This document shows, one piece after another, positions 1 through 7,656 of a stretch of DNA of 64,000 nt. Each line of letters begins with the position of its first letter. The first letter of the stretch is position 1. Made by a program: the position numbers and the translations under genes. This stretch comes from Longimicrobiales bacterium. GTDB taxonomy: Bacteria > Gemmatimonadota > Gemmatimonadetes > Longimicrobiales > Gaopeijiaceae. The notes below the pieces were generated by a model that had not been told where the DNA came from, did not search any database, and worked only from the letters and a program-made list of their open reading frames with translations. The stretch covers positions 1-64,000 of the forward strand of contig CBDANQ010000015.1 in NCBI GenBank assembly GCA_965197725.1. The letters run 5' to 3'.

Positions 1-326
1 TCACCAGCACTGACTACGACATCCCCCGGTGGTCCGCTTCCCGCCAACGCGGCCGCCAGGCTCATGCCGAACGTGGTGTTCGGTACGAGCGCGATCTCGT
101 TCGCTGACGCACCGATCAGTTCGCCGAGCGTTGAGCGGCACCGGTGCTGAGCGGCACCCAATTCCCGCTCCTCGAAGCCATGCGTGCGATTCCGACGGAG
201 CGTGAGTTCGGCAGACTCCTGTGCCGAGGAGTCCGGGACCAATCCCCAGCTCGCGGTGTTGAAGAAGACCCCCTCCGAAGGCCGGGCGTACTCGCGGGCG
301 CGAACCCGCGCGATGGTTCCGGTCAC
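1..326 (-). CDS. Aminotransferase class V-fold PLP enzyme (cysteine desulfurase/isopenicillin epimerase-like), 5' part only; runs off the window
   Basis: Not in the ORF track. Manual translation from GTG at 326 gives ...GVFFNTASWGLVP...RCRSTLGELIGASANEIALVPNTTFGMSLAA..., matching the class V N-terminal motifs. Confidence 0.75.
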   Translation of the reverse strand, partial: MTGTIARVRAREYARPSEGVFFNTASWGLVPDSSAQESAELTLRRNRTHGFEERELGAAQHRCRSTLGELIGASANEIALVPNTTFGMSLAAALAGSGPPGDVVVSAG

Positions 327-342
327 GGCCCCCGCACGGGCG

Positions 343-591
343 TCACGCCGGTGGCAGCCCGGTATCCCGCCCGACGGCCGACCTGAGCCTCTTACGCAGT
401 TCTACGATCGACATCGTCATAAGAGTCCGGCGTGCCGTGCGCTCGGAGTTCCAACGGACGTCGACCAAGACATTCTCCTCACCGGCGTCGTTCGTGAAAA
501 CCAGATAGAATCGGCCCTTGTAGTCCGCGCCAGCCTCTTCACGGACCGACGCGGTCCAGGTCCGATCTCCCGCGTCTGAAAAGTCTCGCAT
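343..591 (-). CDS. Small hypothetical protein (82 aa)
   Basis: ATG with a GAGAGA purine tract upstream; globular-looking sequence (MRDFSDAGDRTW...VELRKRLRSA); co-oriented between the AraC gene and the aminotransferase. Confidence 0.7.
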   Translation of the reverse strand: MRDFSDAGDRTWTASVREEAGADYKGRFYLVFTNDAGEENVLVDVRWNSERTARRTLMTMSIVELRKRLRSAVGRDTGLPPA

Positions 592-622
592 CGTTCTCTC
601 GCTTCAGGTCCAACCGACGTCA

Positions 623-1444
623 CTACGCGACGAACAAACTTGACGGCCGGTCGCGTCCCAGGCCACACGTCTCGAGGAATGCGTGCAACACCGGCTTGAG
701 ACCTCCAGCCTCCCGGATCCCCATCGGCGTCGCCCCCGTGTAGTTCCGCAAAGCGCGTCGAAACGCAGCTCCGCTGGAATACTCCAGTTGGCGGGACACG
801 CTCTCGCCGGTCCGACCCGGGTCCCCGAGCCAACGGCCCGCGTGCAGGAGCTTGGCCCACACGAGCAGGTGACCCGCAGACGGAAGTCCGGTCGCCTTCA
901 AGCGAACGGACAAGTGAGCCCGTGTAAGCCCGGCACGCGCCGCCAACTCGCCGGTCGTCCAGCCGAGCTGAGCACCTCGCAGCGCAAGGCGCACCGCCAA
1001 GGTCTCGCTGCCCGGCAGATAGGCACTCACGGCGCGGGTTACCAGAGCCTCGGTGCTCAGGTCGAAGCCGACGCGCATCGCCCTGGCGACCCCCGAATAC
1101 AGCTCGTCGAGGTGTGTGAGAACAAGGCTTCGAAGTCCCGCGCGTCCCAGCCGGAAAAGACCCTGCGGATCGGTGCCGGAGCGCGCCACGAGCACGAGCC
1201 AAAGACTGGGAAAGCGAACGGTGAGCTCCTCGACGGCAGCCTCCAGGCCCAGGTCCCTAGGAACCAGCTCGGCGTCGAGTACCACCCCGGTCACCGGTCT
1301 CTCCGCGGCGAACCCCATCATCCGGACCCACGAGCTCGTACGGAGGAGCGCATGATCCGTCCATACCGCGTTGGACACAGCGCGGAGGACCTCTTCATCC
1401 CCAGTGAGAAGCGCGAAAAGGGACATGATCTTCGAAAAAGACAT
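623..1444 (-). CDS. AraC-family transcriptional regulator with N-terminal receiver-like domain
   Basis: C-terminal double HTH (ELAARAGLTRAHLSVRL...VSRQLEYSSGAAFRRALRNYTGATP). N-terminus has a REC-like pattern (RPVTGVVLD...LTVRFPSLWLVLVA). Start is ATG 1444 or 1426. Confidence 0.8.
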   Translation of the reverse strand: MSFSKIMSLFALLTGDEEVLRAVSNAVWTDHALLRTSSWVRMMGFAAERPVTGVVLDAELVPRDLGLEAAVEELTVRFPSLWLVLVARSGTDPQGLFRLGRAGLRSLVLTHLDELYSGVARAMRVGFDLSTEALVTRAVSAYLPGSETLAVRLALRGAQLGWTTGELAARAGLTRAHLSVRLKATGLPSAGHLLVWAKLLHAGRWLGDPGRTGESVSRQLEYSSGAAFRRALRNYTGATPMGIREAGGLKPVLHAFLETCGLGRDRPSSLFVA

Positions 1445-1543
1445 ACCAGGAACCTTAAGAGATGTTAACAAGGGCGGAGCGTTCGTCAACGTTGAGGGCG
1501 GCGGCCGGAGGACAGGCCGATCAGATCCTATGAGGAGTCAGAT

Positions 1544-1700
1544 ATGAAGACCCTACTACGCTCGTTGCTCGTACTGACGCTCATCGTGAGTGCGGGTGCG
1601 TGCACGTCTACGATTCTCGGGCCTTCCGCGGACGTCGGAGCCCACCACCCAGACGGCGGACCCTGACCCCGGCGCGCACAACCCGGACCCCGGAGCCTAG
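1544..1700 (+). CDS. Small secreted/lipoprotein-type precursor peptide with 7-aa repeats; frameshifted at about 1661 as sequenced
   Basis: GAGGAG at 1532-1537, ATG at 1544. Reads MKTLLRSLLVLTLIVSAGA-CTSTILGPSADVGAHHPDGGP* (stop 1664-1666). The +1 frame continues PDPGAHNPDPGA* to TAG 1698-1700. Below the ORF-track size cutoff. Confidence 0.75.
1637..1697 (+). repeat. Imperfect 21-nt tandem repeat encoding GAH(H/N)PD(G/P)
   Basis: Units ggagcccaccacccagacggc (1637), gga+ccctgacccc (1658, 8 nt short), ggcgcgcacaacccggacccc (1671), partial ggagcc (1692). Confidence 0.8.
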
Positions 1701-1719
1701 CAGACCCGTCTCGGAGCCT

Positions 1720-3471
1720 TCAGGCTTCGGTGCCGACCGCCTCCGCCCTCATCTCCCTCAGGCCGATTCGAAGTTCGGCCGAGGTTGCGACCGGGGGCGC
1801 TGGTGCCGGAATCCGCTCGGGCGTGTCCAAGGACTTCAGCGCCTCTTCCGCTAAGAAGAGGCTGCGGTTGAGGCCGGCGTCCTCGGCAAATCGGACTGCC
1901 CTGGTTAGCCATGCGCTAGCCTCTGTCCAGCGCCCCAGGGCACGGTACGACAGCCCCCGGTAGTACAGGATTTCGGCGGCTGCCGTGCGTTGCCCGTTCT
2001 CCCACCCGAGAGCGTCGCACCGCGCGGCCCGAAGCTCGAAGCCAGACTCGTCACCACGCTGTGCCGCTAAGTACGCCAGCGCGTCCCAGGCATAGATCTG
2101 GTAGTATGTCTCACGAGACTCGTGTGCCACCACGGTCCAGGCGTCCTCGGCCGCGGACCATTCGCCCGCCTCGGCCAGCACGCCTCCCAGGACTGCCAGG
2201 CAAACTACGCGATAAGACTCTTCTTGGGTGGTGGTGACCGCCTGCCACCCGTATTCCAACGCCAACGGAAGCTCATCAGACATGCTCGCAAGCGTTGACA
2301 GCTCGACGTAGATCAGTGCTTCCGCACTCGGGTCCTCGCTGGCCGTGGCCAATTCGAGCGCGTCCGCAAGTTGGGCCCGAGCTGCGGGCAGGTTTCCCCG
2401 TTCCCGATGGATGACCGCGAGCCCCGCCGTCGTCCGAGCGGCTCCGCTCTGGTCACCAACGGTGAGCGCCACGTCCTTCGCGAGCATATACCACTCGCGA
2501 GATTCGTCCCAACGAGCGAGTCGGCGCAGCACACGTCCTGAGAAGCGGGCAGCCTCGATCGCTTGAGATGGAAGGCCGGTCGCCGCCGCGATATCATACG
2601 CACACGCGTACAGTTCGAGCGCACCGTACTGGTGTCCCTCCGCCTCGACTTCCGCGCCGAGATCGGTGAGAGTAACCGCAAGTTCGTCGAACCGGATCGC
2701 CTCCAATGCGTCCAGGACTTGGTGCCAAAGGCCGACCTCCGCGCACTCGTCGAAGCCGGCCGCCGCGATTTCCCTTCGCACCGAGCTTACTTGCTCCGCC
2801 ACTCGATCCGCGGGAAACGTCAGGTCGTCGTCGATCAACATCCGAGCCAATCGCACGACCGCGAAGCGCTGGCTGATCTTGCGACTGACGCCTTCATCGG
2901 CCTCCCGCCCCTCGATATCCTTGAGGGTCGGCCAACCCGCAAAACGCCGTTCGGAACTGCCCGCCTCTCCGCACTCGGCCTCCGTCGCGTCCAGATCTCG
3001 GTGCAGAACCACAGCGGAGCATTCGCCCGCATGGAACATGACCCACTCACGCGCCTTCTTGTCGAGCATCGCTCGAGGAGCCGCCGACTCGGCGACGAGG
3101 AACCAGGCCCGGGTACCGTCGCTGCCCAGCGCGACCGCCAGCGAGCTCGGCAGGGTGGACGTACCAGGCTCATCGAGTGCACCCGGAACCCCCAGTTCCC
3201 AGGCCCTGCGCAGAGGCTCTGCCGCGAACGAGCGGCGGGGCCGGTCTGAACGCAGGTCCAGAACCACGTGGGGATGCACCAGGCCTGGGCCGTACTCATC
3301 GACCCACACGATCGCAAGGCGATCCGCTCCGGTGATGGCGGCACACTCAGCGACGTGTTTCAGGAGCGCGAGGCGACTCTCCGAGGCACCATATAGCGAT
3401 TTCGCGATCCGCAGGCGCTGGGCGCGCCGATATCGATAGTCCCCGAACCGGAGAACGTTGGAAGTGGACAC
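1720..3471 (-). CDS. Tetratricopeptide-repeat protein with N-terminal GAF-like domain
   Basis: C-terminal Ala-rich helical repeats (GRVLRRLARWDESREWY; LAVIHRERGNLPAARAQLADAL; YYRGLSYRALGRWTEASAWLTRA). N-terminal GADRLAIVW...LAVAL...WFLVAES fits a GAF fold. Likely start GTG 3471 after AGGAAAG; the ORF extends to 3534. Confidence 0.75.
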   Translation of the reverse strand: MSTSNVLRFGDYRYRRAQRLRIAKSLYGASESRLALLKHVAECAAITGADRLAIVWVDEYGPGLVHPHVVLDLRSDRPRRSFAAEPLRRAWELGVPGALDEPGTSTLPSSLAVALGSDGTRAWFLVAESAAPRAMLDKKAREWVMFHAGECSAVVLHRDLDATEAECGEAGSSERRFAGWPTLKDIEGREADEGVSRKISQRFAVVRLARMLIDDDLTFPADRVAEQVSSVRREIAAAGFDECAEVGLWHQVLDALEAIRFDELAVTLTDLGAEVEAEGHQYGALELYACAYDIAAATGLPSQAIEAARFSGRVLRRLARWDESREWYMLAKDVALTVGDQSGAARTTAGLAVIHRERGNLPAARAQLADALELATASEDPSAEALIYVELSTLASMSDELPLALEYGWQAVTTTQEESYRVVCLAVLGGVLAEAGEWSAAEDAWTVVAHESRETYYQIYAWDALAYLAAQRGDESGFELRAARCDALGWENGQRTAAAEILYYRGLSYRALGRWTEASAWLTRAVRFAEDAGLNRSLFLAEEALKSLDTPERIPAPAPPVATSAELRIGLREMRAEAVGTEA

Positions 3472-3626
3472 AGCTTTCCTTGCAAATACTATGTCGGGGG
3501 CATCTTCCAATCTAGCGACGGTCGCCAGGGTCACACAACGACCCAGTCGACCAATTCCCCCATGACTCTCTCCAATCGGGCCAATCGGGGCCTCCCCACC
3601 GATCTCGGACTGCGGCTCATGGGAGG

Positions 3627-4400
3627 TCAGTCGCCCGAGCCCAGCTGATCCCGGTGGAGAAGCTCGGGAAACTCGTAATACAAGACGCCTTCCTTCGAGA
3701 TTTCCGAACGGATGCGAAAGCCGTCGTCCATCGACGTGAGGATCTTGTCGGCGGTGGCAATCGGCAGGTTCATGTCCGCCGCGACCTCCGTAACGGTCAG
3801 CCTCCCCCCCCTCATGCCGGCGAGCTTGAGGATTTTCCTCTCGAGCCCCTGCATGATCGCCTTACGGCGATCCTGGAGGCCCTGCCATCCCCAGTAGAAC
3901 ATGCCGGATCCACCAGCTCCCAGGACAGAACCTAACGCAACCACGCCCATCTCCCATTGCACGAACCCCATCAGTACCATGAAGCTCGCCAATAGGACCA
4001 TGGCCACACCCAGGATCCGGCGCTTGAGGCCGGCGCTCGGTAGCGGCTCGTCGGGCTGCACCTCGAGCATGAACCTCTCGGCGTCCGGACCGGTGACCGC
4101 GAGCGCCCTCGACGCGTGCTCCCAACCCAGGGCGCAACGCGGACAGATGAGGTGCTTGCGACGGGCGGCCCAGTAGATGAGGCCGCCGAATCCATATGTG
4201 AGCACCGACACGACGACGAGCAGGCCAACGTGTCCCGCCCTCCGGAAATAGGGAATCCCCTCGCCCTGGTAGGAGCACTTGGGGCACCGGCGCATTCCCG
4301 TGGGTCGCGACAGCGCCATTCCGACCGGCGTGGACGTCCCGCACGTGGGACACCGTACAGCGCCCGGTTGGAGATTCTCGCCGCAAGTAGAACAGCGCAT
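3627..4400 (-). CDS. Zinc-ribbon membrane protein with C-terminal winged helix
   Basis: Four CxxC motifs (CSTC, CPTC, CPKC, CPRC), hydrophobic segments, and C-terminal ILKLA...LTVTEVAADMNLPIATADKIL...GVLYYEF. Confidence 0.75.
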   Translation of the reverse strand: MRCSTCGENLQPGAVRCPTCGTSTPVGMALSRPTGMRRCPKCSYQGEGIPYFRRAGHVGLLVVVSVLTYGFGGLIYWAARRKHLICPRCALGWEHASRALAVTGPDAERFMLEVQPDEPLPSAGLKRRILGVAMVLLASFMVLMGFVQWEMGVVALGSVLGAGGSGMFYWGWQGLQDRRKAIMQGLERKILKLAGMRGGRLTVTEVAADMNLPIATADKILTSMDDGFRIRSEISKEGVLYYEFPELLHRDQLGSGD

Positions 4401-4492
4401 GGACCGTCGGAAACAGATGGTTGCCTAAATCGACTCTGCTCCTTACGCGGAGCCAAGTGAGAAGATTCAGCCCTTTTAGCCTGCTTTACCGG

Positions 4493-6634
4493 CTAGCTCA
4501 GCCGAATCACCCGCATCCTGAGGGCCGCTCCGGAAGGGCTCGCCCTCGCCCCCCCGGCCTCACCGCCGAGTCGTAACGTCACCGAGCCTTGCGAGGTCGG
4601 TACCACAATGTAGTAGCGCACGGACGAGGACCATAGCGATCCCGACCGCGTGAAGTCGGCGGATCCGAGCGTTTCGGGCAGCAGCACATAGTCGTCGCCG
4701 AGAAGTTCCCGGAGATCCAGTCCCGGATAAGTGAGACGGATCCCTACCGCCTCGTGCCCATCCACGTAGGTCGCTGTCCACCAGTCGGCGAGCAGCTCCT
4801 CCCATGGGACGCCAGCACGCGCCGTGACGTTGTCCGTCCCGGTCGTGGTCGTGCGCGTGAGCTGTCCGAGAACTCCCCCTCCCTTCTGCGCGGCCAGGTA
4901 CAGTACGTGCAGCCATCCCCCGCCGCGTTCCTCAAGCGACCCGCTACCTTCGGCCACGAGCAGGCTCACGTCCGACGGGTCGAGTAGGTATTGGCGGGCC
5001 CGTTGCAGGTTTCCCCTTCTAAACAGCTCAACGGCGTGTGCGTTCTCATCCAACTCATACTCGCGTGCGACCAACTCCTCGGCCATCTGCGCCAGCCCCT
5101 CGGAAAGCCACAGCGCCTCGGTGGACGCGGCCTCGAGGACCAGGACCCGTTGGTTGAAGTGCACCATGTGTTGGAACTCGTGCGCCAGAACCGCAGGCGT
5201 AGCTTCGAGCACCCGGTCCTTCGGCCTCGGGTCGGAAAACTGTCCGTCCGGGTCCGGCACCTGCGCGTAGAAGATCTCCGCGTCGTTGCCGCCTTCACGT
5301 TGGGGGAGCAGGTCGATACCGAAGAAGAAACCGCCCACCAAGCCGTCTGAGCCCTTCGGAGTGAGGCGATTCACCGTGGGCGTGAAGAGGATGATGACAC
5401 GTTGGTTGCCGTCGAGGTCCGACACGCCTCCGAAGGCATCCGTCACCGTCGGATATATGACTTCGTCGAACTGCCGCGTGAAGTCTTCCAGGTCGTCCGG
5501 ACCAAGGCCTCCCACGGGAGCCGTCTCGTCCACGTATAGCACGGCTTGGGAGCCCACGTACTCCGCCATCGCGGTGACTTCGTCGAAGTCACTGTCCGCG
5601 TTGAACACCTGGAAGGTACGGCGGTCGCCCACACTCGGTACGACGGACTCGACTCGAAGGGCCGCCGACCGTGTCCGGGCGACCCCCTCGCGCACGAGCG
5701 CGGCCTCACGGCGTCTGAGCAGTGCCTCGAAGCGCGTCTGCGGCGGCACGCCTCCGTCCGTCGGTATCGCGCGAGCAGTGGGCACCCCTTGACCTTGAGC
5801 GAGCGTCGACCCACCACCGATGAGTCCAGCCACTTCGAACCCGTGCTGTGCCGCACCGATCGTGCTGGCCGACATCGCTAGCACCAGGTAGGACGCGCCA
5901 CCGAGACCGGGCATGCGCAGACACGGAAAACTGGAGTCATCGGCCACCTCGACGACCTCGCCCACCGCGAGCACCGTTGTCTGGGTGCCCCCAACCACTT
6001 CGAGCGCGCGGGCTTCGCTCTTCACGGCGCCCAGCTGCGCTGTCACCTGAACGGACCGGCTCGGCAGGCACGTAGGCACCACGACCTCGAGCTCGGTGGT
6101 GCTCGCCGAGGTCACGCGTCCGCGGATGCCCGAGAAGAGTACGACGTTGTGATCTGGTGTTGGGCTGAAGCTGTTCCCCAGCAGCGTGATCGTGGCTCCC
6201 GCGGGCGCCTCTGCGACGGAGAGCGCGTCGAGCACCGGCCGATCCACCGCGAAGAGCGTGAAGTTCACCGTCGCGGACTCCTGTTCGGTGACGGTGGCCT
6301 TGATCACGACCTCACCCGGTGCGCCGCCAAGGCGCATGCTCGCAAACGCCGAACCCGACTCGTCGGTCAGCGTGGCTGGTGAGCCCGTGAACGTCGCCTC
6401 GCCTTCGACGACCTCCCAGAGGACACCGACCTCCTTCTTCGGCTTCCCGGTCGACGCCGTGCGCACGAATACCTGTAGGCTCGCAGGCAGCGCCTGTCCC
6501 AAGGCCCCGAACTGTCCGTCACCACTCGCCACGACGATTTCCACGAGCGGGAGAGCCGGCTCCATCGGGTTCTCGCCACACGCGGTCACACAGAGGAGGA
6601 GGGCAGCCGCCGCTCGTACGCAAGTGGTTCTCAA
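4493..6634 (-). CDS. Lipoprotein zinc metallopeptidase (M30/hyicolysin-like) with Ig-like and IPT/TIG domains
   Basis: Lipobox VTAC, Ig-like SGDGQ...L.V.V, IPT-like GATITLLGNSF...VVVP, HEFQH followed by WLSEGLAQMAE. TTG 6634 overlaps the upstream stop (TTGA). Confidence 0.75.
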   Translation of the reverse strand: MRTTCVRAAAALLLCVTACGENPMEPALPLVEIVVASGDGQFGALGQALPASLQVFVRTASTGKPKKEVGVLWEVVEGEATFTGSPATLTDESGSAFASMRLGGAPGEVVIKATVTEQESATVNFTLFAVDRPVLDALSVAEAPAGATITLLGNSFSPTPDHNVVLFSGIRGRVTSASTTELEVVVPTCLPSRSVQVTAQLGAVKSEARALEVVGGTQTTVLAVGEVVEVADDSSFPCLRMPGLGGASYLVLAMSASTIGAAQHGFEVAGLIGGGSTLAQGQGVPTARAIPTDGGVPPQTRFEALLRRREAALVREGVARTRSAALRVESVVPSVGDRRTFQVFNADSDFDEVTAMAEYVGSQAVLYVDETAPVGGLGPDDLEDFTRQFDEVIYPTVTDAFGGVSDLDGNQRVIILFTPTVNRLTPKGSDGLVGGFFFGIDLLPQREGGNDAEIFYAQVPDPDGQFSDPRPKDRVLEATPAVLAHEFQHMVHFNQRVLVLEAASTEALWLSEGLAQMAEELVAREYELDENAHAVELFRRGNLQRARQYLLDPSDVSLLVAEGSGSLEERGGGWLHVLYLAAQKGGGVLGQLTRTTTTGTDNVTARAGVPWEELLADWWTATYVDGHEAVGIRLTYPGLDLRELLGDDYVLLPETLGSADFTRSGSLWSSSVRYYIVVPTSQGSVTLRLGGEAGGARASPSGAALRMRVIRLS

Positions 6635-7656
6635 CGCGGTCCTCGCTCGCGCTCGACGCTCAACAAGTCGAGGATCGGGGTGCCGGTCAGAACGGATGCC
6701 CCAGTCCGGACTCTGGCCGTCACGGTGACGAACTCGAGCGGAACCCATCCTTCCACTTCCGTCAGGCGATCTGGCGGGACAGCGACGTACACGAACGGTC
6801 CGCCCTCGCCACCATAGCGGCACAAGAGGAACGGCTCCCCCTCGAAGAAGTCCGTTCGCACCGCCTCCGCCTTCTCCTGAGAGATGAACTGTAGACGCCA
6901 CGAAACGACGCGCCCGGCGAACGCCTCGGGCTCCACAGCGACATCGTCGGGCGACAGGACCGCGGGTTCGTCCGAGCCATCGTCGGACGTAGGGGTGTCC
7001 GGCTGCCATATCCATCCCTCTACTCGGACGCGGACCCAGTTCCCCTGCCTGGCGGTCACCTCGAGCTCAGCCCGTGGAGCCGCCCTTGCGAGCGTGTCAC
7101 CGTCTGGCGCCGTGAGAATCGCAGCCCCGTTCGCTCCGACGTCCGTAAAGCCGGCGGGCCGGCTCGTCGACGGAGGCGAAGGAGTCGGGGTGGTGGGCGA
7201 GGCTGCCGTGGGCACGCCCGCGACCTCGGCTAGGGAGGGGCCCCACACCCACCCCCGACGGCGGATCAGAATCCACCCCGGAACCCGACGGACCTCCTCG
7301 AGTAGGGTGCCACGTGCCAAGCGTCCGAGGATCGTGCCCGATGGCGCGTCCCTGAGGTTCTCTCCCTCTGGCTCGGAAACCACGAGCTCGAGGGCCGCAT
7401 CGATACTCACTTGCAGCGAGCGGGTCCACATCCATCCCTCGAGATCCATCTGGACCCAATTGCCCCGCCGCTCCACGATCCGCATCGGAACTCCCCCATT
7501 GAGGCGGGCGAGGACCTCACCGTTGGGGGTCCTGCGGAAATTCTCCTCCGCACGAAGGCGCGCAGTGCCCTGTGCGTGGACCCCCTCGGCGCCGAGCAGA
7601 AGCAACCAGACAACGAGGAGAAACCATCCATGCGAACTACCTTTCTGGCTCGACAT
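6631..7656 (-). CDS. Secreted protein with three SH3b-like domains
   Basis: Signal peptide (VHA-Q); three repeats of R..P.G..L.RL...GNWV....GW.W; Pro/Thr-rich linker. Confidence 0.75.
   Translation of the reverse strand: MSSQKGSSHGWFLLVVWLLLLGAEGVHAQGTARLRAEENFRRTPNGEVLARLNGGVPMRIVERRGNWVQMDLEGWMWTRSLQVSIDAALELVVSEPEGENLRDAPSGTILGRLARGTLLEEVRRVPGWILIRRRGWVWGPSLAEVAGVPTAASPTTPTPSPPSTSRPAGFTDVGANGAAILTAPDGDTLARAAPRAELEVTARQGNWVRVRVEGWIWQPDTPTSDDGSDEPAVLSPDDVAVEPEAFAGRVVSWRLQFISQEKAEAVRTDFFEGEPFLLCRYGGEGGPFVYVAVPPDRLTEVEGWVPLEFVTVTARVRTGASVLTGTPILDLLSVERERGPR

Follow-up and report, generated by a model that had tools for sequence, protein, structure and literature searches.

Convergent repeat-peptide genes beside TPR-protein and AraC-type regulator genes in Gemmatimonadota: a candidate peptide-signalling cassette

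The DNA stretch analysed here (the window) comprises 64,000 nucleotides (nt) of contig CBDANQ010000015.1 in assembly GCA_965197725.1, which belongs to a Longimicrobiales bacterium of the phylum Gemmatimonadota. Three genes located near its first position are the subject of this work: a gene of an AraC-type regulator, a gene of a large tetratricopeptide repeat (TPR) protein and, between them on the opposite strand, a small open reading frame (ORF) for a lipoprotein-type peptide precursor. A preliminary description, made from the sequence alone, had read them as a possible peptide-signalling cassette. The features of the locus are listed in Table 1; genomes, contigs and loci used for comparison are cited below by G, C and L numbers, G000 being the window genome.

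Table 1. Positions of the cassette genes and of the adjoining features in the window
Feature	Position	Strand	Description	Basis
AraC-type regulator	623..1444	-	receiver-like (beta-alpha)5 fold at residues 8-127 and C-terminal AraC helix-turn-helix	Pfam HTH_18, AlphaFold2 model
Conserved DNA block TCTTCG[AG]AAAAG[AG][CT]ATACC	1429..1447		AraC 5' end, about 115 nt upstream of the peptide ATG	
Shine-Dalgarno-like GAGGAG	1532..1537	+	6 nt 5' of the small-ORF ATG	read from the sequence
Lipoprotein-type precursor gene, 40 amino acids (aa)	1544..1666	+	ATG at 1544, TGA stop at 1664..1666	read from the sequence and orthologues
Apparent relic of another repeat unit, GAHNPDPGA-stop	1671..1700	+	+1 frame, behind the TGA stop	
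Predicted cytoplasmic TPR protein, 583 aa	1720..3471	-	GTG start; Pfam TPR_12, TPR_2 and TPR_10 only	Pfam, AlphaFold2 model
EamA/DMT transporter remnant, ~20-28 codons, MTLSNRANRGLPTDLGLRLMGG...	3536..3622	+	rest of the gene missing here	
Membrane protein with N-terminal double zinc ribbon	3627..4400	-		weak Pfam DZR/zinc-ribbon matches
Putative lipoprotein with Ig-like domains and HExxH (LAHEFQHM)	4493..7015	-		weak Pfam Big_1 and TIG, weak NCBIfam MXAN_6640_HExxH

The product of the small ORF reads, in order, MKTLLRSLLVLTLIVSAGAC-TSTILGP-SADV-GAHHPDG-GP, followed by the stop codon. Its N-terminus, MKTLLRSLLVLTLIVSAGAC, begins with a basic n-region, continues as a hydrophobic stretch and has AGA-C at its end; the lipobox is SAGA-C with Cys20 (codon 1601..1603), and the signal preceding this cysteine reads MKTLLRSLLVLTLIVSAGA. 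The linker TSTILGP is followed by one repeat unit in frame, GAHHPDG (1637..1657). The preliminary description had correctly recognised a tiny ORF with a strong ribosome-binding site, its basic and hydrophobic signal ending in AGA-C and its divergence from the AraC-type gene, all of which can be seen directly in the window sequence. It had also ascribed two in-frame 7-aa repeats to the ORF, which proved wrong: only one unit is in frame, and GAHNPDPGA-stop lies in the +1 frame. The earlier reading crossed a frame change, because 1544..1700 has a length of 157 nt, which is not a multiple of three. Convergence of the ORF on the TPR gene stands; since the ORF ends at the TGA codon, the distance between its stop and the converging TPR stop codon is 53 nt and not the 19 nt given earlier. 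An Rfam search over positions 1..5000 of the window returned no match at E-values up to 1. The small ORF of the window is a real, conserved and selected gene, as the comparisons below indicate.

A search with the TPR protein among 41 related genomes revealed full-length orthologues in 12 of them, all in the window's own family; in a 13th genome, the match is in two pieces on one contig. In all 12 orthologous loci, a small ORF is located between the AraC and TPR genes; its signal is of the lipoprotein type with ...[AGS]C at the end, and G/A-P closes the short linker that comes next. Ten of these ORFs carry 3-8 tandem units of 6-7 residues that run directly up to the stop codon, for example, HGPDAGS x4, HNPDGGN x5, YQPGPNA x3, HNPNIG x3, NHTLGSG x6, YDIGSNS x4 and GTLGSGN x8.

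A scan of a database with one genome per species extended the set to 78 loci, all from metagenome-assembled genomes of Gemmatimonadota, among which 9 of the 12 genomes recur. Sixty-four loci, in which 250 nt or more follow the TPR gene, could be tested, and the peptide gene is recognisable in every one of them; it is intact in 62 and broken in two, by an in-frame stop in L015 and a 5' frameshift in L077. The gene is always convergent on the TPR gene in these loci, and the two stop codons are up to about 120 nt apart, the smallest spacing being -4 nt, an overlap. A PROSITE-type lipobox rule (basic n-region, hydrophobic core, Cys at position 15-35) fits 59 of the 62 intact copies; the three misses carry N or P just upstream of [TA]AC. 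Exact tandem copies were found in 45 of the 61 intact genes analysed, L020 being left aside for a masked stretch. The common layout of the precursor is a signal peptide, the lipobox Cys, a linker of 6-8 residues ending in G/A-P, and 1-8 identical units that extend to the C-terminus; in most copies, the tandem array has 2-8 units of 6-7 residues. Among 5.8 billion database proteins, only seven relatives were found, none of them with a Pfam family; their names are 'hypothetical protein' and, for a single one of them, 'predicted small lipoprotein YifL'. The peptide is not covered by any family of Pfam or NCBIfam. The peptide gene represents a new small-gene family that has been overlooked by standard annotation.

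Some members of the family show peculiarities. Locus L041 (about 5280-5560, minus strand) has two tandem peptide genes beside one TPR gene, each with a single IIPGPNT unit and a Cys pair. A conserved two-cysteine loop, PDCEDPxxC, is located between the linker and the first repeat in many loci (L019, L027, L036, L044, L045, L060), which suggests a disulfide in the exported form. The TPR genes of L040 and L077 each have an in-frame stop; L077, whose peptide gene is the frameshifted one, is a complete-chromosome assembly. These stops could reflect either sequencing error or decay of the cassette.

As the preliminary description had proposed, the neighbourhoods of the TPR homologues were scanned in six frames. 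This blind scan covered 584,159 bases of 78 related loci and 16,379 start-defined ORFs of 30-150 aa. A lipobox was detected in 126 ORFs, and a lipobox together with an exact tandem peptide repeat in 43; all 43 are at the homologous position, and none is elsewhere. The exact repeats comprise 199 copies in 45 genes, which have 159 distinct DNA sequences and one protein sequence per gene. Since this count is circular with regard to amino-acid changes, a second count was made, in which an in-phase unit was included if its identity to the consensus reached 50% (49 genes, 214 units). Here, variation is purely synonymous in 169 repeat columns and alters the amino acid in 16, of which five come from two spurious signal-peptide hits. 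Such a predominance of synonymous variation indicates that selection holds the units of a gene identical while their DNA drifts. This would be expected if every unit were released as the same product, and concerted conservation of repeats at the protein level is an unusual pattern. The signal peptide and the lipobox are likewise preserved as protein sequence, even between loci in which the TPR proteins share no more than 31-50% identity.

The window copy of the gene is reduced. When the window is aligned with three congeners, clean 21-nt units can be noted in G001 and G004; in the window genome and the sister genome G002, the array is decayed and its last unit is out of frame, with the same +1 relation. 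The distance from the first CAC codon of unit 1 to that of the relic is 34 nt in the window, against the 21-nt units of intact relatives. Sequencing runs were compared by means of Logan contigs only. In run X3, the contig of record 7, from a relative that is ~90% identical (depth 3.9), extends across 1300..1884 with no indel listed within the ORF, and record 6 of the same relative has 67 other letters in place of window positions 1624..1666. The contigs of run X2, which are 100% identical to the window, end at 1444 and restart at 1766, so that the ORF is uncovered. Contig X20 of an RNA library reaches just 1958..2145 of the TPR gene, which is not a demonstration of transcription. Given that G002 shares the frame break and that the X3 contig spans the ORF without a listed indel, the break looks real and not like an assembly error. 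Apparently, the out-of-frame unit is a relic left by decay of the repeat array, and the window is down to a single in-frame unit.

In the congener G003, the cassette is gone: a single deletion (G003:C99:64654-65473) fuses TPR codon ~39 to AraC codon ~32 and took out the greater part of the TPR gene along with the peptide gene and AraC codons 1-31. Thus, two genomes of the genus have a complete module, two others a module with a truncated peptide gene, and one has lost it by deletion. Peptides with a single unit, ending in ...CDYQPGSNG, ...CHEPDSGN or ...DCGGTHGPNTCE directly before the stop codon, occur elsewhere in the family; therefore, the 40-aa product of the window may remain active, to judge by these relatives. 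The window copy may also be a weak producer or a non-producer that retains its receptor.

The TPR and AraC orthologues are adjacent wherever both are on one contig (13 genomes of family f1 and four of family f3). The AraC gene is present in 13 of the 13 family genomes that have the TPR gene; among the genomes without a TPR orthologue, just G003, with its deletion remnant, has a comparably strong AraC match. The sister family f3 has a shorter TPR homologue, which is without most or all of the N-terminal, GAF-like domain described below, and in four of its eight genomes, the AraC gene is on the opposite side of the TPR gene. Two of these four loci have an ORF for a 60-aa lipoprotein that is convergent with the TPR gene (L092, 3736..3918; L093, 3784..3966); this ORF has an acidic D/N/G-rich tail ending in NNN instead of heptad repeats. 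No lipoprotein ORF was seen beside the TPR gene in the other two, L094 and L095. The triad outlasts gene rearrangement, and function is therefore favoured over frozen synteny. Tight linkage of the small ORF to the TPR and AraC genes is supported across two families.

The TPR gene begins with a GTG codon preceded by AAGGAAAG. No signal peptide was found in its product and no helix-turn-helix by Pfam, which agrees with the ~580-aa protein lacking both that had been outlined before. The AlphaFold2 model built on an alignment of 56 sequences (mean predicted local distance difference test, pLDDT, 90.4; predicted template modelling score, pTM, 0.87) begins with an alpha/beta domain (residues 9-155), made up of two helices, six strands and two more helices. 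A disordered linker then leads to the TPR superhelix (180-549), and a further helix (565-579) is located at the C-terminus. The alpha/beta domain alone gave a best match with an E-value of 0.29 against PDB sequences and no significant Pfam match. The leads towards GAF are language-model neighbours bearing this name (Atlas, 0.96) and sub-threshold GAF_2 matches in 4 of 39 members. Thus, of the GAF-like/TPR identity suggested originally, the TPR superhelix is supported by Pfam and the model, and the GAF-like nature of the N-terminal domain is a lead only. A stand-alone paralogue of the domain (~165 aa, G000:C55:31460-31888, in locus L013, G000:C55:29960-33388), likewise with no Pfam match, adjoins a PspA-like coiled-coil protein and an ECF-type sigma factor, as identified by eye.

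When the model was searched with Foldseek, LGN/Pins ranked first, followed by designed TPR proteins and OGT, with Rap lower. The VIA-align Z scores were 22.3 for TONSOKU, 21.8 for RapJ-PhrC (4gyo), 20.7 for RapI (4i1a), 18-19.7 for LGN, 18.4 for RapH-Spo0F, 17.4 for NprR-NprX, 17.3 for RapF-ComA and 16.2 for AimR. The fold comparison proposed at the outset thus placed Rap, NprR and AimR among the best matches, a position that they share with unrelated peptide-binding TPR proteins. Judging from the model, the TPR domain appears to be a superhelix of the peptide-binding type, with Rap among its nearest neighbours. Co-folding of the L037 TPR protein (with the 56-sequence alignment) and its mature peptide (residues 20-76) gave a score of 0.00 twice, in runs that had no controls, which counts neither for nor against binding. 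On the TPR tree, the peptide class changes six times, with a minimum of four; there are too few independent peptide switches, and a co-variation analysis of peptide and receptor therefore has no statistical power.

The AraC-type protein has the N-terminal sequence MSFSKIM, and its longest ORF extends to 1489; the true start may be the invariant Met7 (ATG 1426..1424), as the orthologues suggest. HTH_18 is the sole Pfam family found in it (36.4 bits, cut-off 33.6), and a profile search of PDB returned AdpA, VirS and SoxS. The AlphaFold2 model (pLDDT 90.8) has the strand and helix order b1-a1...b5-a5 over residues 8-127, with the double helix-turn-helix of AraC proteins behind it. In a wide VIA-align search of 48,161 chains, receiver domains account for 47 of the best 50 rows listed (Z 8.6-10.5), AraC-type regulators 3cu5 and 6swb among them; the root-mean-square deviation of the receiver matches is 2.4-3.8 A, save for 1l5y_A at 6.1 A. 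The AraC-type DNA-binding domain 3oio matches residues 141-247 with Z 8.8. The acceptor D57, located at the beta3 end, is retained by 52 of the 56 orthologues and D16 by 45, so the receiver-like N-terminus with a retained Asp, noted at first from the letters alone, is supported by the predicted fold and by conservation. The orthologues have no conserved Thr or Ser at the beta4 end (position 87 is A, V or L, and 88 is R) and no conserved Lys at the beta5 end; positions 109-111 are L, L/V and P. No histidine kinase had been noticed nearby, and indeed none of the 18 HATPase_c matches of the genome is on the window contig (C15), nor is there a kinase among the conserved neighbours. Compared with two-component response regulators of AraC output such as XynC and AraT, the Thr/Ser and Lys residues are absent and no kinase is nearby; the domain is therefore best described, on the basis of the model, as an atypical receiver or pseudo-receiver. 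Pseudo-receiver domains, we infer, are often governed by protein contacts rather than by phosphorylation.

A natural fusion of the AraC and TPR proteins was sought among AraC paralogues of ~750-790 aa and rejected: these carry a Peptidase_S13 (PBP4-like) domain and not TPR. Locus L099 (G002:C2, 2758..5016) is an example of this odd one-component architecture, in which a receiver-like/AraC paralogue is fused to Peptidase_S13, a D-Ala-D-Ala carboxypeptidase of the PBP4 type; similar ORFs of 750-790 aa are present in G001, G003, G004, G011 and G021. Upstream in L099 is a gene that resembles, by eye, a class-V aminotransferase; the homologous neighbour of another AraC paralogue, L101, belongs to Pfam Aminotran_5, and a gene similar to this aminotransferase is also found downstream of the main cassette.

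The DNA between the divergent genes is conserved as well. Alignment of 61 loci (from L014-L091) on the start of the peptide gene showed the block TCTTCG[AG]AAAAG[AG][CT]ATACC in most of them, either overlapping the AraC start codon or preceding it; in L010 and L011, it is non-coding and precedes the AraC ATG. About 10 nt beyond it is another block, AA[AG]TGAT, often succeeded by a GC-rich hairpin. Both blocks belong to the control region shared by the divergent genes, and the first is a likely candidate for its promoter or operator. The peptide gene is antisense to the two genes that flank it, TPR and AraC, which are read in one direction; transcription running past the end of the TPR gene would therefore meet that of the peptide gene head-on. 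This arrangement recalls the convergent prgX/prgQ switch of pCF10.

We consider it possible, although with somewhat less than an even chance, that this conserved three-gene module of Gemmatimonadota performs RRNPP-like signalling by an exported peptide with parts that are not homologous to those of RRNPP systems. The precursor would be exported by the Sec pathway, lipidated and cut by signal peptidase II; these steps are suggested by the lipobox and by the presence of LspA (PF01252) in the window genome (G000:C30:3304-3723, 110.6 bits, above the cut-off). An extracytoplasmic protease would then free the heptapeptides, for which a speculative candidate is the HExxH lipoprotein encoded two genes away. 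Speculatively, the heptapeptides would re-enter the cell and bind in the TPR groove of the GAF-like/TPR protein; three SBP_bac_5 matches to peptide-binding proteins in the window genome indicate a capacity and nothing beyond it. The TPR protein might in turn act on the orphan receiver-like domain of the AraC regulator, which has no kinase, as Rap does on Spo0F and ComA, again a speculative step. The AraC regulator would then set transcription from the divergent AraC/peptide control region.

Among known systems, the module would work most like Rap-Phr; with regard to its N-terminal domain and demonstrable homology, it falls outside the RRNPP family. In both cases, a small gene for an exported propeptide adjoins that of a cytoplasmic TPR protein without a DNA-binding domain, the output passes via a separate receiver or DNA-binding regulator (as in the RapH-Spo0F and RapF-ComA structures), and the mature peptide, here a proposed one, is at the C-terminus of the precursor. 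The differences are as follows. Rap-Phr systems belong to Bacillota (Bacillus), whereas the hosts of the cassette are diderm Gemmatimonadota; Rap has a 3-helix bundle where the cassette protein has an alpha/beta, GAF-like domain, and there is no convincing sequence homology between the two TPR proteins. The Phr gene follows its receptor gene, whereas the peptide gene of the cassette converges on it. In addition, the cassette has a lipoprotein signal, up to eight identical heptapeptides and an AraC regulator with an atypical receiver.

Some of these traits have precedents. In a survey of RRNPPA systems (NprR, PlcR, AimR and Rap subfamilies), propeptides of Firmicutes with up to six identical mature copies are described; 211 of 2,734 propeptides were predicted to be cleaved at a lipobox by signal peptidase II, and the mature peptides have 5-8 residues (PMC9765709). 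According to the same text, repeats are present in 6.7% of atypically large propeptides (PMC9765709), whereas here, they are the rule, with 45 of 61 genes. The RRNPPA receptors are not homologous to the TPR protein of the cassette. The yeast alpha-factor and fungal repeat proteins processed by KEX2 (PMC9769878) likewise combine a signal peptide with tandem identical peptides that are freed by proteolysis. These eukaryotic precursors have dibasic spacers or cleavage sites, whereas the units of the cassette abut without spacers, and no processing enzyme is known for them.

Linear unmodified peptide pheromones with cytoplasmic TPR receptors are regarded as a trait of Firmicutes. Gemmatimonadota are widespread in soil and in the sea, and few of them have been cultured. 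A bolder form of the proposal is that the cassette is a peptide-pheromone system of the quorum-sensing type that is native to this diderm phylum and was assembled independently of the RRNPP families of Firmicutes, with a lipoprotein cut into up to eight heptapeptides, a GAF-like/TPR receptor, a pseudo-receiver-AraC output and 'signal-blind' variants like the window; it is a tentative idea that we hold to be more probably wrong than right. If the signalling reading is true, this would be the first peptide-pheromone system native to a diderm phylum. The RRNPP surveys consulted concern Firmicutes and their mobile elements (PMC10075063, PMC9765709), and the text of the RRNPP_detector survey deals with Firmicutes and viruses and mentions neither Gemmatimonadota nor, outside its reference list, diderm or Gram-negative hosts. 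A description of the cassette was not found in the literature on Gemmatimonadota peptide quorum sensing, Gram-negative RRNPP systems and tandem-repeat pheromone precursors, in a coverage that excludes most subscription journals. Present in dozens of Gemmatimonadota genomes, the cassette is a good and easily testable candidate for peptide signalling: the predicted ligands are short, unmodified and synthesisable, the receptor and the regulator are soluble and have confident models, and about 70 natural peptide/receptor pairs exist for a comparison of specificity.

Several points weigh against peptide signalling. Release of the peptide, its re-import, its binding to the TPR protein and the contact of the TPR protein with the AraC regulator are speculative and proposed by analogy; in a diderm cell, a lipid-anchored peptide must be freed and then cross two membranes, and no dedicated importer or exporter is linked to the cassette. 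The EamA transporter gene is absent from 32 of the 78 loci, many of which have an intact peptide gene. The TPR protein possesses neither the helix-turn-helix nor the Rap-type helical N-terminal domain of RRNPP proteins. Its fold match is unspecific, since TONSOKU, LGN, APPBP2 and KLC1 score like Rap, and a profile search of PDB sequences revealed a single weak Rap match (6t3h_A, E 6.9e-4, ~95 residues), which is below many generic TPR proteins. With six changes of peptide class against a minimum of four, the peptide type is passed on stably over the TPR tree; a turnover of pherotypes, as many pheromone systems show it, is not apparent. In 12 of the 25 genomes of the family, no cassette was detected, and the peptide gene of the window itself is truncated. 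Finally, every locus comes from one phylum, and the synteny may therefore be partly due to plain vertical inheritance.

It is also conceivable, though in our view rather unlikely, that the small lipoprotein is itself the end product, that is, a surface or periplasmic lipopeptide with a turn-rich tail (a tether, a coat or hydration element, or a bait) controlled by the AraC and GAF-TPR proteins in response to another input, such as a small ligand. Regulators and their targets are typically arranged like the divergent AraC-type gene and the small ORF, a GAF-like domain suggests a small-molecule input, and the absence of a linked importer is no difficulty here. The lipobox is the only sorting signal present, and conservation of the units over deep branches of the TPR tree is what a structural or binding element would show. 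However, the mature part has just about 20-65 residues and no globular domain, and selection keeps the units of a gene identical as the DNA drifts, which a spacer or tether does not need. The array always ends exactly at the C-terminus; members with a single unit behind a Cys-Cys loop are hard to understand as a structural repeat, and the convergence of the peptide and TPR genes outlasts a change in gene order.

Possibly, the TPR protein does not receive a released peptide but holds the unfolded tail of the precursor before export, and export then frees it for the AraC regulator. Such secretion-coupled partner switching has a parallel in type III secretion, in which the class II TPR chaperones SicA and IpgC become co-activators of the AraC-type regulators InvF and MxiE after departure of their secreted clients. 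Common to the two cases is the triad of TPR protein, regulator of the AraC family and exported client, here a small protein. Re-import would not be needed, the best folds include TPR superhelices with a long peptide stretched out in the groove (LGN with NuMA, Inscuteable or Frmpd4), and a tail of 3-8 heptads is similar in length to the LGN ligands. However, this mechanism is proposed by analogy, and we think it quite improbable. The cassette includes no secretion system, and its client is a Sec lipoprotein, a class of substrates with lipoprotein signals that are not known to need such chaperones. The TPR protein is about 3.5x the size of class II chaperones and has the additional GAF-like domain, the AraC protein has a receiver-like domain, and the family includes members with a single unit.

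Another explanation is that the precursor is of the repeat type known from ribosomally synthesised and post-translationally modified peptides (RiPPs), akin to TigB/TvgA, and that a maturase modifies the repeats to a natural product. Precursors with several cores are a known RiPP layout, the cassette precursor is short with tandem repeats of the T-[IL]-G-S type, and NCBIfam RiPP_TigB (NF047709) does match GTLGSGN x8 (E 5e-7, 29.7 bits) and HTLGSGN x6 (E 0.002). However, 29.7 bits is far from the cut-off of 70, the match is to a low-complexity repeat, and the other five peptides tested gave no match to a RiPP family. There is no modifying enzyme among the conserved neighbours; in the three genomes with a determinable position, the nearest radical-SAM gene (PF04055), the kind of partner TigB has, is at least 185 kb away (G041, 185 kb; G045, 191 kb; G044, 289 kb). 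The N-terminus is a Sec/lipobox signal instead of a leader peptide. This origin is, thus, very unlikely. That the ORF is no gene at all, and instead a chance ORF or a tandem repeat at the DNA level such as an operator array, fits the short, frame-broken window copy and the rarity of its calls (seven database proteins), but it is already contradicted by the conserved signal and lipobox across loci at 31-50% TPR identity, the 169 synonymous-only against 16 protein-changing repeat columns and the 43 of 43 hits of the blind scan at one position, and it can hardly be believed.

The neighbours of the cassette were counted over the 78 loci within the limits set by the locus ends. The TPR gene is present in 78 and the AraC gene in 63, with the antisense peptide gene between the two. 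An intact EamA gene, on the opposite strand and divergent from the TPR gene, is found in 46 loci; the L003 homologue matches Pfam EamA with an E-value of 4.9e-48, and G002 has a truncated 167-aa version. A connection between the loss of EamA and the decay of the peptide gene, which coincide in the window and G002, was considered and rejected, because EamA is missing in 32 loci, many with intact peptide genes. The HExxH lipoprotein is a neighbour in 59 loci and the zinc-ribbon membrane protein in 72; neither gene was found beside the f3 cassette. The true start of the HExxH lipoprotein, speculatively the extracytoplasmic processing protease, is probably downstream of the start of the longest ORF. 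Less frequent neighbours are an 82-aa protein (32 loci) and a class-V aminotransferase (18 loci).

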